A stretch of 64,000 nucleotides of DNA from Chiloscyllium plagiosum (lineage: Eukaryota), in contig NC_057728.1 in NCBI RefSeq assembly GCF_004010195.1, positions 61,749,956 through 61,813,955 on the forward strand. The letters run 5' to 3'. A program made the translations under genes and the position numbers. The notes under the pieces were generated by a model that was given only the letters and a program-made list of their open reading frames with translations, ran no database searches and was not told the origin of the DNA. Positions 6,618 through 63,517 of the stretch are shown piece after piece (positions within the stretch are counted from its first letter, which is position 1; every line of letters begins with the position of its first letter).

Positions 6618-6657
6618 GCAAACGTTTCGTGTCCTGTCTAGGTGACATCCTCAGTGC
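6618..6657 (-). ncRNA. Minimal hammerhead ribozyme motif (PLE type)
   Basis: GCA-CUGAGGA-U-GUCACC-UAGACA-GGACAC-GAAAC-GUU-UGC. Helix I is GCA/UGC; helix II is partly mutated. Confidence 0.7.
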
Positions 6658-6884
6658 TTGGGAGCCTCCTGTGAAGCGCTTCTGTGGTGTTTCCTCCGGC
6701 ATTTATAGTGGCCTGTCCCTAGAAGCATGGCACTCATCCACAAACTCCATCAACAAACACATAGACCTGGACCCAATATACCGGCTACAGCGGACAGCTG
6801 AAACTGACAACCGGAAGCGGCAGGGACAGGCCACTATAAATGCCGGAGGAAACACCAGAGAAGCGCTTCACAGGAGGCTCCCAA

Positions 6885-6923
6885 GCACTGAGGATGTCAC
6901 CTAGACAGGGGACGAAACGTTTG
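6885..6923 (+). ncRNA. Minimal hammerhead ribozyme motif (PLE type)
   Basis: GCA-CUGAGGA-U-GUCACC-UAGACA-GGGGAC-GAAAC-GUU-UG. Confidence 0.75.
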
Positions 6924-8282
6924 GATGACACCATATGATTAAGGAGAATGATAGCAAAAATAGCTTGATTTTACAGTCAACAGCAAAGTGAAAAGGTGCT
7001 TTCCACTGTTTTTGAAGAAACCTGCTCACAAAGGTCGAACAATATCAAAAGGCAGGAATTCCTCTTTCTACAGAACAGTTTAAAATCTGGCACCAAGTCA
7101 AGGGGATGGCTTAACCTGCTGAAGCTGTGACATCAGCAAACATAATAAAGTTTCACACAGGAAACCAAGTAGTTAAAAGCTTTTACAATCCATTACTTCT
7201 AACTTATGTTCTCAGATTGTGGAATAAATTATGACAGTGTTAAGATAGAAGCTAAAAATACTACTTAAAAACATTTACTATTGAGTGTTGATAAATGTGT
7301 TTTTTTTAATACCTTGGAGATATTTTTGACTCCTCAAAAATTAGCTTTTCTGTCTAAATACATTAGCTTTTCAAGGCCAATTTGGCAACAGTATAAAATT
7401 ACTAAGCCATTAAAAACTCAGCTGCACATCATTCAACAGGCTCCAACCCTTTTCTATGCATTTTACAATGCAACTAATGTCAATTGACTGGAAGTTTTTG
7501 TCAATGCATGAGTGCAAGAGAATTAAAGGACTTTGTGCTATTGTTTTCATATCCAAACTTTCAAATGCTGCTTTTACTATCATTACCAAAGCAAAATCCA
7601 AATCAACTTGTCTGACTTCGCTATCAAACTGGTCCTAAGACATGGCACACAATTTCAGCGGCATGATCCTTAGGTTTGTGCTACCTCAAACACAATTAAG
7701 CTGGTGAAATTAAGCTGGTCCTCGACAAATTTGCTGGAGCAAATGCATAAATTTGTGCTGGCTTTTCTTAATTCACAATTTTCAAGATGACTTAATTCTA
7801 CATTGCTACAATTTCCAGAGTTCTTACAACATTGATGTTAAATAGATTAGCCTCTGAAGCAGGACTTATTCTTGGGCATTTTTTAATTAACCGAAGTTGG
7901 AACATTTACAAAAATGTTCCAGTGCCCTAGCATTACTTTTGTATGAGAGGAGGAATGAAAGTGGCTGCGCCAATTTCCACTCCCGATTTCCTCAGTATCT
8001 CAGTCACACTATTTGGTTTTGCAACCTGTCAACTTCAAGTTCAGCCAGCCTTTCTAAAGCTTCCTTTTTAACAATTTCAACCCACCAAACGTGGCAACTA
8101 TACCTTCCTTCATGAGGTCTATGGCAGTACCTACTTCCATGGTCAAGACAGGGATGAAAGTAGTCATTTAGTATCTCAACCCTGCCCTTTGTCTCCTGTA
8201 TGGGTCAGACATCAGCATCACTCTTCCAATTACCAACATTTTATTACTTACATGCCCATGGAACACTTTGAATTCTGCCGAA

Positions 8283-8360
8283 AAGAGGGAGAACACGAGC
8301 GAGAGCGAGGAAAAGAGCGCAAGAGAGAGAAAAAGAGAAAGAGCGATAGAGCGAGAGACA
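8283..8360 (+). repeat. AG-rich low-complexity tract
   Basis: gagagcgaggaaaagagcgcaagagagagaaaaagagaaagagcgatagagcgagaga. Confidence 0.7.
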
Positions 8361-60160: not shown

Positions 60161-60200
60161 TCAGACATTTCATCACCATAGTAGGTAACATCATCAGTGA
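60161..60200 (-). ncRNA. Hammerhead motif in inverted pLTR
   Basis: UCA-CUGAUGA-U-GUUACC-UACUAU-GGUGAU-GAAAU-GUC-UGA. Confidence 0.7.
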
Positions 60201-60629
60201 GCCTCCGATGAAGCACTGATGTTGTGGCCTAAATGTCTTCAAATACCTAAATGTCTTAAATACAAACCTCCCCTTAACATCCCACTAGCCAAAAGAATAG
60301 CGGAGAAAATCGGCTGCAGAATGCTCAGCCAAATGATTAACAATGCCCACAACAGACTCCGTAAATACAATCGGGAAATTTTGTGACAAAAATACTTTAC
60401 TAACTAAGGTGACAGACTGTACCGTGCCTGCCTATTCACAATGAGCCATTGGCATTAGACAGTGGCAAACACAGAAAACAAAAAAAAACTAGCCCTGCAG
60501 GAACAAGTAGACAAGCTCACAAAGTAACAACACAGAAGCATGGATAAAAAAATTACCTGACTGACCCTTAACAGACATTGAAAAGAGGATTAAATTACAA
60601 CTTCCGTTATGAGGACAAGACTGTGGAAA

Positions 60630-62640
60630 GGATACGGAAGCTATAGACTGTGGGGAAATAGATGATGATATCTTGCAAAATGTCCATATTACAGAGGAGG
60701 AAGTGCTGGATGTCTTGAAACGGGTAAAGGTGGATAAATCCCCAGGACCTGATCAGGTATACCCGAGAACTCTGTGGGAAACTAGAGAAGTGATTGCTGG
60801 GCCTCTTGCTGAGATATTTGTATCATCGATAGTCACAGGTGAGGTGCCAGAAGACTGGAGGTTGGCTAACGTGGTGCCACTGCTTAAGAAGGGTGGTAAG
60901 GACAAGCCAGGGAACTATAGACCACTGAGCCTGACGTCGGTGGTGGGCAAGTTGTTGGAGAATATCCTGAGAGACAGGATGTACATATATTGGAAAGGCA
61001 AGGACTGATTAGGGATAGTCTGCATGGCTTTATGTGTGGGAAATCATGTTTCACAAACTTGATTGAGGATTTTGAGGAAGTAACAGAGGATTGATGAGGG
61101 CAGAGCGGTAGTTGTGATCTATATGGACTTCAGTATGGCGTTCGATAAGGTTCCCCATGGAAGACTGATTAGCAAGGTTATATCTCACGGAATACAGGAA
61201 TAGTGGGCGGCACGGTGGCACAGTGGTTAACACTGCTGCCTCACAGCGCCAGAGACCCGGGTTCAATTCCCAACTCAGGCGACTGACTGTGTGGAGTTTG
61301 CACGTTCTCCCCGTGTCTGCGTGGGTTTCCTCCGGGTGCTGCGGTTTGCATGTCAGGTGAATTGGCCATGCTAAATTGCCCGTAGTGTTAGGTAAAGGGG
61401 TAAATGTAGGGGTATGGGTGGGTTGTGCTTCGGCGGGTCGGTGTGGACTTGTTGGGCCGAAGGGCCTGTTTCCACACTGTAAGTAATCTAATCTAATCTA
61501 ATCTAATCTAAACTAGCCATTTGGATACAGAACTGGCTCAAAGGGAAAAGACAGAGGGTGGTGGTGGAGGGTTGTTTTTCAGAGTGGAGGGCGCTGTGAC
61601 CAGTGGAGTGCCACAAGGATCGGTGCTTGGTCCTCTACTTTTTGTCATTTATATAAATGATTTGGATACAAGTATTAGAGGTGCAGTTAGTAAATTTGCA
61701 GATGACACCAAAATTGGAGGTGTAGTGGACAGCGAAGAGGGTTACCTCACATTACAGCAGGATCTTGACCAGATGGAGTTTAATTCAGATAAATGCGAGG
61801 TGCTGCATTTTGGGAAAGCAAATCTTAGCAGGACTTATACACCTCACAGACTTTGAGGACTTATGCACCTTAATGGTAAGGTCCTAGGGAGTGTTGCTGA
61901 ACAAAGAGTCCTTGGAGTGCAGGTTCATAGCTCCTTGAAAGTGGAGTCGCAGGTAGGTAGGATAGTGAAGAAGGCGTTTGGTATACTTTCCTTTATTGGT
62001 CAGAGTATTGAGTACAGGAGTTGGGAGGTCATGTTGCGGCTGTACAGGACATTGGTTAGGCCACTGTTGGAATATTGCATGCAATTCTGGTCTCCTTCCT
62101 ATCGGAAAGATGTTGTGAAACTTGAAAGGGATCACAAAAGATGTTGCCCTGGATGTTGCCAGGGTTGGAGGATTTCAGCTAAAGGGAGAGGCTGAACAGG
62201 ATGGGGCTGTTTTCCCTGGAGCGTCAGAGGCTGAGGGGTGACCTTATAGAGGTTTACAAAATTATGAGGGGCATGGATAGGGGAAATAGGCCAAGTCTTT
62301 TCCCTGGGGAGTGCAGAACTAGAGGGCATAGGTTTAGGGTGAGAGGGGTGCAGAACTAGAGGGCATAGGTTTAGGGTGAGAGGGGAAAGATATAAGAGAC
62401 CTAAAGGGCAGATTTTTCACACAGAGGGTGGTATGGGTATGGAATGAGCTGGCAGAGGAAGTGGTGGAGGCTGGTACAATTGCAACATTTAAAGGGCATT
62501 TGGATGGGTATATGAATAGGAAGGGTTTGGAGGGATATGGGCCAGGTGCTGGCCGGTGGGACTAGATTGGGTTGGGATATCTAGTCGGCAGGGATAGGTT
62601 GGACTGAAGGGTCTGTTTTCATGATGTACATCTCTGTGAC
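60630..62640 (+). mobile_element. CR1 LINE (RT domain to 3' end), relatively young, inside the PLE
   Basis: ORFs [77 protein letters not shown] 37-bp tandem duplication lies at 62311-62384. Confidence 0.95.
61205..61510 (+). mobile_element. HE1-type SINE nested in CR1
   Basis: gggcggcacggtggcacagtggtta...gggttcaattccc; (taatc)5 tail. Confidence 0.95.
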
Positions 62641-63477
62641 CATATAAAGGCAATATGCAAAACAAATGTCATTTACAAAATACCTTGCAAGAACTGTAAC
62701 AAGCACTACATTGGACAAACAGACAGAAAACTATCCACCAGGATATATGAACATAACTAACCACAAAAAAACATGACCCACTATCACTGGTATTTTTACA
62801 TACAGATGAGGAAGGATACCACTTTGACTAGGACACACATCCATCCTAGGACAAGCAAAGCAGAGACACGCACAAGAATTCCTAGAAGCATGACATTCCA
62901 ACCAGATCTTTATCAACAAACACATTCATTTGGATCCCATCTATCACCTTCTGAGAAAAAGACCAGGAAATGACATCACCAACCCAAGAAAACTTAAACA
63001 TATAAATAGAAAGCAGGCCGTAACACCAGTGCTTCACTGGAGGCTCACTGATGATGTTACCTAGTATGGTGACGGAAAATCTGAAAATGCACCTTCCAAC
63101 TCAGTGAGCAAACTTACATCCAGAGCCTCAACCTGAGCTATAAGTCTTCTCAAAACTCGCTAACAGCTAGGGGTGCAATACGCTAATGGCATTCCTTACC
63201 TAGTATGGTGACGAAATGTCTGAAAACGAACCTTCCAGGTCAGTGAGCAAACTTACATCCAGAATGTCAACCTGAGCTATAAGTCTTCTCAAAACTTGCT
63301 AATATCTAGGGGCTCAATACGCTAATGGCATTCCAACCAGAACTACTTCAACAAACACACCAATTTGGATCCCATCTATCACCCCCTGAGAAAAAGAACA
63401 GGAAATGACATCACCAACCCAAGAAAATCTAAACATAAATAGAAAGCGGGCTGTAACACCAGTGCTTCACTGGAGGC

Positions 63478-63517
63478 TCACTGATGATGTTACTTAATAT
63501 AGTGATGAAACATCTGA
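63478..63517 (+). ncRNA. Hammerhead motif in terminal pLTR (further degenerate copies at 63045-63084, 63196-63223, 59844-59883)
   Basis: UCA-CUGAUGA-U-GUUACU-UAAUAU-AGUGAU-GAAAC-AUC-UGA. Confidence 0.68.

Follow-up and report, generated by a model that had tools for sequence, protein, structure and literature searches.

The window analysed here, a 64-kb stretch of the genome of the bamboo shark Chiloscyllium plagiosum to which all of the counts below refer, is occupied over its left 35 kb by an intron of ARID2, lying on the minus strand, and harbors 18 remnants of hammerhead ribozymes that fall into three lineages and are distributed among 10 insertions (Table 1). Judging from the sequence, these motifs are very probably minimal type-I hammerheads of the pseudo-long terminal repeats (pLTRs) of Penelope-like elements (PLEs), preserved in 5'-truncated, dead insertions. 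The original prediction for this DNA had proposed minimal type-I hammerheads of PLE pLTRs in a shark-like genome, and our analyses support that proposal: coding DNA for a GIY-YIG endonuclease (EN) abuts the motifs, the closest homologs come from carpet sharks, and the motifs fit the consensus published by Cervera and de la Pena in 2014, NNN CUGANGAH G..C GAAAN-palindrome-NU H NNN (PMC4209133).

The motifs were sought with a family-agnostic descriptor (helix I, CUGANGA, helix II of at least 4 pairs, and GAAA-NN-UH), with 40 dinucleotide shuffles of the window serving as the null. Without core mismatches, the descriptor recovered 5 motifs with helix I paired 3/3 (shuffle mean 0) and 7 with helix I paired at least 2/3 (shuffle mean 0.025); with one mismatch it recovered 10, against 0.2 per shuffle, and with two mismatches 15, against 4.6 per shuffle, which is the noise level. 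The copy at 57936 (+) appeared only at two mismatches, and thus is not significant alone. Homology searches assigned 12 copies to the GUYACC, or Poseidon-type, lineage (12 nhmmer matches; with a covariance model, 12 of 23 among the matches listed had E < 1e-4), 5 motif copies and one motif-free piece to the GGGC/GCCC lineage, and a single copy to the GGAGC/GCUCC lineage. Weak relatives of the 3' part of the GGGC lineage, having lost the hammerhead part, were found at 13157-13231 and 55446-55536 (-), with E values of 0.19 and 0.43. Descriptor hits at 29568+, 28762-, 63628-, 59804- and 22907-, with one or two mismatches, were considered as additional families; lacking repeat support, they were taken as chance. 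The hammerhead families of Rfam share the same catalytic core, yet they gave no match at the gathering score and none among the 7 matches at E up to 10, and an Rfam mir-680 match at 43371-43478 was rejected as merely the inverted pair of the GGGC lineage.

All 12 core positions are intact in 7 of the 18 copies, which derive from 4 insertions and show the type-I core order CUGANGA ... GAAA ... UH; the remaining copies carry 1-4 changes or are truncated. Position 11.1 is C in 11/18 copies and U, forming a G-U pair with 10.1 as a result of CpG decay, in 7/18. The sequence described in the original prediction is present at all seven of the coordinates it cited. Its figure of more than ten motifs is reached, at 18, if decayed copies are counted, but only the seven intact cores remain if they are not, and among its seven examples two are broken (47581+ lacks 3 nt of CUGANGA; 57936+ has G8A and A13G) and 22185+ carries a 3-nt duplication after A9. 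The single extra nucleotide it described after A9 holds for 6 of the 7 intact cores, with four unpaired nucleotides between A9 and 10.1 in 22185+, while the palindromic 4-mer of its near-palindromic helix III is kept in 9/18 copies and lost in the other nine.

In homology searches the three lineages showed no cross-match with one another. Within the Poseidon-type lineage, subfamilies A (GCA/UGC), B (CCA/UGG) and C (UCA/UGA) are homologous pLTRs that share 57-83% identity over as much as ~270 nt (A versus B, 60-64%; B versus C, 69-75%), and two older copies are 71-80% identical to C. The proposed count of at least five families can be defended at an 80% cut-off, but only three lineages are unrelated. 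Target-site duplications (TSDs) were recognized at 6 of the 10 insertions, as exact direct repeats of 12, 12, 13 and 14 nt and as 14-nt repeats with one or two mismatches. Their scores were 8-11, compared with random zone pairs of which 26/296 scored at least 8, 3/296 at least 9 and 0/296 reached 11. Five of the 10 insertions carry a hammerhead on both arms, arranged head to head, and the arms of a single insertion are 87-98% identical; for example, 60161- and 63478+ are the two ends of one insertion enclosed by one 13-nt TSD (59795/63594).

Table 1. Insertions, hammerhead motifs and associated coding fragments in the 64-kb window. Arm ends are counted from A9; P numbers denote homologous proteins.
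Feature	Position	Strand	Details
Insertion 1, left arm (subfamily A pLTR)	6546..6718	-	Hammerhead 6618-6657, core intact, helix II 4/6 pairs; predicted cut 6621/6620; ORF start codon 6648; ORF 91% to P0027 aa 1-53; arm end +103
Insertion 1, right arm (EN C-terminus + pLTR)	6719..6924	+	89% to P0009 aa 402-463; hammerhead 6885-6924, core intact, helix I 2/3 since arm stops at +26 to +30; TSD 6532/6920, 14 nt, 2 mismatches
Insertion 4 (decayed Poseidon-type thumb/EN/pLTR)	14922..15726	14922-15599 -; inverted piece 15616-15726 +	Hammerhead 14999-15037, broken core (G5A, G12A); no TSD found; within ARID2 intron
Neptune-type RT fragment (second PLE clade)	15730..16063	-	76% to P0029; no linked hammerhead
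Insertion 2, left arm (subfamily B pLTR)	21355..21645	-	Hammerhead 21434-21473, sole copy with all features (see text), G-U at 10.1/11.1; predicted cut 21437/21436; arm end +110
Insertion 2, right arm (GIY-YIG EN, 21676-22050, + pLTR)	21651..22265	+	Hammerhead 22185-22227, 3-nt duplication after A9; arm end +69; TSD 21343/22266, 12 nt exact
GGGC/GCCC copy	38778..38885	+	5'-truncated inside hammerhead; long (tail-bearing) end; TSD 38764/38886, 14 nt, 1 mismatch
GGGC/GCCC copy	39597..39760	+	Degenerate core; helix I AUC/GAU paired 3/3
GGGC/GCCC head-to-head pair, palindromic junction	43331..43548	both	Minus arm: hammerhead 43391-43423, 3-nt core deletion, short end; plus arm: hammerhead 43424-43457, core intact, helix I 2/3, long end; TSD 43317/43549, 14 nt exact
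Insertion 3 (head-to-head Poseidon-type pair)	46881..47661	both	Minus arm 46881-47238 (hammerhead 46918-46954); plus arm 47269-47661 (hammerhead 47581-47617); each core lacks 3 nt; TSD 46869/47662, 12 nt exact
GGGC/GCCC copy	49998..50086	-	Truncated inside CUGANGA; short end
GGAGC/GCUCC single copy	57936..58061	+	Hammerhead 57936-57970, G8A, A13G, AGCU palindrome, helix I CAC/GUG
Insertion 5, left arm	59808..60227	-	Two tandem hammerheads 317 nt apart via internal-deletion junction: 60161-60200, core intact; 59844-59883, U4C; end +67
Insertion 5, right arm start	60243..60607	+	N-terminal PLE ORF, aa 93-221 of P0027, E 2.8e-11
Later nested LINE	60610..62630	+	Splits insertion 5; RVT_1 E 0.047; SINE inside at about 61200-61500
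Insertion 5, right arm end	62626..63593	+	GIY-YIG EN; hammerheads 63045-63084 (A13G) and 63478-63517 (core intact, palindrome lost); local 139-nt duplication with half hammerhead 63196-63223; internal-deletion junction; end +107
EN, endonuclease; ORF, open reading frame; RT, reverse transcriptase; LINE and SINE, long and short interspersed elements.

The coding context connects the Poseidon-type lineage directly to PLEs. GIY-YIG peptides lie immediately upstream of the A, B and C motifs (Pfam E values of 5.7e-5 and 1.2e-3), PLE proteins tile all five Poseidon-type insertions, and the closest named proteins (21 matches among 102 candidates) are reverse transcriptase (RT)/EN proteins of Chiloscyllium, Stegostoma, Hemiscyllium and Rhincodon, at most 90% identical. 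The C-terminal EN has two cysteines between GIY and YIG, and the CX2-5CxxC linker between RT and EN is missing from P0009 and P0015, whereas P0032 and P0034, which belong to the other clade, possess it; the combination of cysteines and missing linker thus corresponds to the signature given for Penelope/Poseidon elements (PMC8557442). In an RT tree built without named Poseidon references, two PLE clades are split at 100/100, and the second, Neptune-type clade includes full-length relatives with a CX4CxxC linker. Besides the fragment listed in Table 1, a Neptune-type coding fragment without a nearby hammerhead was observed at 27495-27566 (+), with weaker ones at 3426-3581 and 4833-4955. P0030, a 158-aa protein from a 474-nt contig labelled Proteus mirabilis, is 73% identical to the Neptune-type RT piece of the shark, and this record is probably contamination.

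The GGGC and GGAGC lineages quite probably represent the same kind of hammerhead from other PLE clades. The GGGC lineage bears hallmarks of PLEs, namely TSDs, 3' ends of two classes ~38 nt apart and an inverted pair whose junction is palindromic. A comparison of the two lineages with 36 proteins gave one weak match (E 0.04) and no convincing link to an open reading frame (ORF), and for 57936+ we found no TSD, no second copy in the window and no linked ORF.

In the Poseidon-type pLTRs, the order of elements is the GIY-YIG C-terminus, CUGANGA, an AUG formed by A9, the extra U and G10.1, helix II, the predicted cut and the first ~35 codons of the RT ORF. The original prediction had not recorded that motif and start codon coincide. 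This AUG is present in 10/12 Poseidon-type copies, and its frame yields homologous peptides in A, B and C, with in-frame stops 9-18 codons upstream in B and C. Searching 1249 candidates with a profile built from these peptides yielded 2 proteins. One of these, P0027, is a 656-aa bamboo-shark protein (RVT_1 E 3.9e-11) that carries the A9-AUG peptide in frame with the RT and is 91% identical to 6702-6544, while the first residue of the other, P0026, is the A9-AUG methionine. The predicted cut lies at +28 from the A of the AUG, within codon 10. In the 3' pLTR, the EN frame crosses CUGANGA and stops in the helix II loop (6902-6904 +; P0009, P0022, P0024); the ORF thus covers the motif twice, with its end and with its start, in different reading frames. 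PLE-derived peptides also occur in shark gene-model isoforms of RP9, MAP3K7, CUEDC2 and WBP2-like (P0026, P0008, P0020, P0023, P0024), and P0026 continues from the hammerhead AUG into host sequence, which suggests pLTR-initiated or exonised transcripts, or annotation artefacts.

Pairing was examined in 7 ungapped copies, which are related rows from 3 insertions; 22185+, 15037-, 47581+, 46954- and 63196+ were left out. An automatic alignment of 11 motifs misplaced the three copies with core indels. Paired cells amounted to 92%, compared with 27-55% in slid controls, and 9/500 shuffles reached the observed paired fraction and covariation score. The outer pair of helix I is U-A, C-G or G-C, with one copy cut off by its TSD, and pair 10.3-11.3 is U-G, U-A or C-G. 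The claim that helix I covaries perfectly between different families was overstated, as A, B and C are homologs and only one of the three helix I pairs varies, the inner C-G and A-U being invariant in 7/7 rows. Helix I shows no extension beyond 3 bp in A, B or C, and 57936+ has one extra pair. With three subfamilies, the covariation in these alignments is supportive but not significant.

The insertion ends carry information on the RNA template. Counted from A9, the long arms of the Poseidon-type insertions end at +103, +110, +107 and +75 (this arm is internally deleted but terminates in the same sequence) and the short arms at +69, +68, +67 and +26, each inverted pair combining one long and one short end. 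The usual difference of ~40 nt matches the one-ended 'tail' of PLEs (PMC8557442, PMC3846280). Moreover, 7 of the 8 arms run past the predicted cut and mostly end 40-80 nt beyond it, indicating that the template was uncut there. These ends agree with in vitro results on the Poseidon element PAc from Anolis carolinensis (Frangieh et al. 2024, PMC11167929), in which an uncut RNA served as substrate and cleavage required protein. In PAc the ORF likewise begins at stem II, the cut lies 26 nt after the start codon (predicted at 25 nt after the AUG in the shark), reverse transcription starts at +111-118 (shark ends +103 to +110), two start sites define the tail, and both strands are extended. There are also differences: the PAc tail lies downstream of the first start site, whereas the common shark ends lie near +68 and +108, and PAc is active, whereas all copies in the shark window are broken. 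With Adineta Penelope elements and PLEs in general (PMC3846280, PMC8557442), the insertions share head-to-head pLTRs, TSDs, first ORF codons inside the pLTR, a 30-40 nt tail on one end only, palindromic inverted junctions and internally deleted derivatives, although the shark TSDs measure 12-14 nt rather than 8-10 nt.

By analogy with the Anolis element, the element protein would nick both target strands, and uncut RNA would be reverse-transcribed from two internal priming sites located 3' of the ribozyme. In an active master element, the motif may be a slow ribozyme that needs a second copy, through the 4-bp palindromic helix III, and/or the element protein. The ribozyme would act later than, or in parallel to, templating, most plausibly by cutting the AUG off the element mRNA. 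Because cleavage in codon 10 would separate the AUG from the ORF, we regard the switching off or rerouting of the element mRNA after translation, rather than the formation of a template 3' end, as the likeliest job of the ribozyme, at roughly even chances.

Several observations weigh against the interpretation developed here. A boundary direct-repeat search found no TSD at 4 of the 10 insertions, and a comparison of the GGGC and GGAGC lineages with 158 Neptune-type proteins gave 3 weak matches (best E 0.002), none of which reads into the motifs. The number of two-sided pair changes was reached by 73/500 shuffles, with about three subfamilies and related rows. The 6885+ arm, one of the four short arms, stops between +26 and +30, around the predicted cut at +28. 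It shows a microhomology of 4 nt, and the TSD of its insertion is the weakest; the coincidence may be due to chance and serves only as a lead. The start codon at A9 has competitors, as subfamily A has a second in-frame methionine 18 codons upstream, and in B and C another AUG is spelled by A6-U7-G8. Finally, protein is also encoded by the 3' half of the motif, and the conservation of the motif could in part stem from that.

In its strong form, this last point would mean that the conservation reflects translation start and coding constraint, with no ribozyme action even in master elements. The stretch from A9 through the end of helix I does constitute ORF codons 1-11, Naiad PLEs spread without canonical hammerheads (PMC8557442), and core mutants leave in vitro insertion unaffected (PMC11167929). 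However, conservation extends to CUGANG and the 5' strand of helix I even though both precede the AUG, the outer helix I pair occurs in three Watson-Crick forms and pair 10.3-11.3 in three paired forms, two unrelated lineages keep the core without an AUG at A9, and the Anolis homolog cleaves with protein and shows C3G/G8C rescue (PMC11167929). We therefore consider pure coding constraint unlikely.

It is similarly improbable that the tandem units at 59808-60227 and 62890-63593 represent a free non-LTR retrozyme family that spreads by rolling-circle reverse transcription from circular RNA. Insertion 5 contains an internally deleted hammerhead-to-hammerhead unit of 294 nt, which falls within the 150-450 nt animal range (PMC7229834), as does the left-arm spacing; its deletion junction is present in three places (63186, 63322 and 60060), and in-frame stops at codons 30 and 39 are shared. 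These units resemble non-LTR retrozymes (PMC7229834; bioRxiv 10.64898/2026.07.22.740005) in being pLTR-derived tandem units of ~300 nt with one type-I hammerhead each, and retrozymes and PLEs have been reported in one chondrichthyan genome, with a mean retrozyme consensus of 363 bp (bioRxiv 10.64898/2026.07.22.740005). Yet each arm retains only one intact core, rather than the complete hammerheads of a retrozyme, and the hammerhead is minimal, not canonical. In addition, both arms cross the two tandem hammerheads joined by the same junction and the downstream units form one group (85/84), so a two-hammerhead RNA was copied uncut, and the ORF/EN sequence contiguous upstream is foreign to the 294-nt unit, which excludes a unit-length circle as the source of the insertion 5 event. 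Two independent retrozyme insertions are ruled out by the shared 13-nt TSD, which marks one event, by the ORF fragment at 60243-60607 and by the local 139-nt duplication that produced the third junction. The shark unit differs from retrozymes in being joined to PLE ORF sequence within one insertion.

Still less probable, in our view, is that the genomic copies are working ribozymes that cleave host or element transcripts, such as the ARID2 pre-mRNA, as dimers. Seven cores are intact, and the position of the left 35 kb within the minus-strand ARID2 intron places three motifs in sense orientation in the pre-mRNA; in the 317-nt tandem of insertion 5, the intact 60200- core might in principle cleave the 59883- motif, with one G-U in helix III, at 59847/59846, the sole cut predicted for this arm. 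However, 5 of the 7 intact cores also keep the palindrome, and a single copy among the 18, 21434-21473 (-), combines both complete helices, the single extra nucleotide and the palindrome. Among the lost palindromes, 8/9 show single CpG transitions. CpG deamination is eroding most of the copies, which are dead fossils, and no selection is apparent on individual genomic copies. The two intronic motifs with intact cores would, according to predicted folds, have 37/40 and 40/40 nt buried in an inter-arm duplex. Monomer folds formed both helices but mispaired the core with the helix III strand in 3/6 cases; two-copy folds produced a double hammerhead in 0/6, a result without weight as energy models capture this structure poorly. 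The minimal hammerhead dimers described previously cleave weakly (PMC4209133). A further part of the original prediction is not borne out as phrased: in place of a reservoir of ribozymes from five independent families we find mostly dead copies from 10 insertions and three lineages. Inverted partners, which lie on opposite strands, are predicted to form a long duplex rather than a dimer. The inverted pLTR pairs at 6532-6933 and 21343-22277 are predicted to form long, near-perfect RNA duplexes in the ARID2 intron, possibly serving as substrates for editing or small-RNA production.

The idea that the motifs are chance matches in AT-rich repeats, for which the two-mismatch shuffle level and the copy at 57936+ might be cited, is already refuted for the Poseidon-type and GGGC lineages by the excess of strict descriptor matches, the fixed position of the motif within PLE ends and the prior publication of near-identical motifs (PMC4209133), and overall it is extremely improbable.

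Compared with Rfam and the literature, the shark motifs are new, mostly dead members of the minimal PLE hammerheads described in 2014. The motif characterized there has a palindrome and shares with the shark copies a long helix II, a short helix I, the extra nucleotide after A9 and an arrangement in opposite-strand pairs 100-700 bp apart, with thousands of dispersed copies (PMC4209133). In Fig. S3 of that study, the Clonorchis motif is almost identical to shark subfamily A, the Acropora Neptune motif has the same GGGC start of helix II as the 43424 lineage, and the turtle motif shares the AGCU palindrome of the 57936+ type; its Fig. S3 and Table S1 list no shark species. Our literature searches turned up no paper devoted to shark PLE hammerheads, and the supplements of bioRxiv 10.64898/2026.07.22.740005 may list such families.

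The surrounding locus includes further features. The first three coding exons of ARID2 lie at 36406-36500, 36195-36288 and about 35473-35572 (-); the gene was identified by an ARID Pfam match (E 1.4e-8) and by ARID2 as the best PDB match. Exon 3 was located by a motif search, which found no later ARID2 exon. A decayed RBPMS/RBPMS2 retrocopy resides in the ARID2 intron at about 17300-17700 (-), with an RRM matching PDB chains at E 1.8e-11, and a CpG-rich segment at 37100-37400 (+) contains a CA repeat and a putative first exon belonging to another gene that lies head to head with ARID2. LINE sequence flanking the 39597 copy is duplicated, in inverted form, inside that copy (39534-39592 and 39680-39738). 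In insertion 3, two internal deletions have affected the right arm (47553-47580 and 47640-47661 +), one of which took most of the EN tail up to the hammerhead. The LINE nested in insertion 5 we take to be CR1-like, and the SINE inside it a shark tRNA-SINE.

The seven intact cores correspond, on the basis of 4 insertions in a single 64-kb window, to 62 intact-core insertions per Mb (95% range 17-160). Coelacanth and Xenopus genomes contain 4,000 and 9,000 minimal hammerheads, respectively (PMC4209133), and the axolotl contains 120,000 retrozymes (PMC6155905); if the window is typical, the shark density is far above that of coelacanth and Xenopus, and the total is comparable to that of the axolotl retrozymes. 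Penelope LINEs and a 2.96-Gb assembly have been reported for the whale shark (PMC8455134). A broader, tentative reading, which we consider doubtful as a whole, is that carpet sharks are the hammerhead-densest vertebrates (on the order of 10^5 per 3-Gb genome, provided that the window is representative), that the ribozyme is a start-codon switch, and that insertion 5 records the birth of a retrozyme. Under this joint reading, the ribozyme may fold over the AUG, with protein-assisted cleavage in codon 10 ending translation, and the 294-nt deleted unit of insertion 5 may still have been retrotransposed on uncut linear RNA. If this is true, the insertion ends would constitute a genome-scale in vivo record of the use of cut versus uncut templates.

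The hammerhead class and the insertion architecture have already been published, and thus the window adds a taxon rather than a system, together with a high density of copies and the 294-nt unit that runs from hammerhead to hammerhead across an internal deletion. Published studies treat the role of PLE hammerheads as an open question (PMC8557442, PMC11167929), and the shark fossils bear on it: PAc, whose cleavage is protein-assisted (PMC11167929), is the only biochemically studied Poseidon element, and the shark copies mirror three of its properties in vivo, in a second vertebrate class: the ribozyme contains the start codon, priming occurs internally and 3' of the ribozyme, and the template is uncut. 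A shark genome so rich in copies would allow ends at the cut site to be counted, covariation to be tested across families and intermediates between PLEs and retrozymes to be sought.

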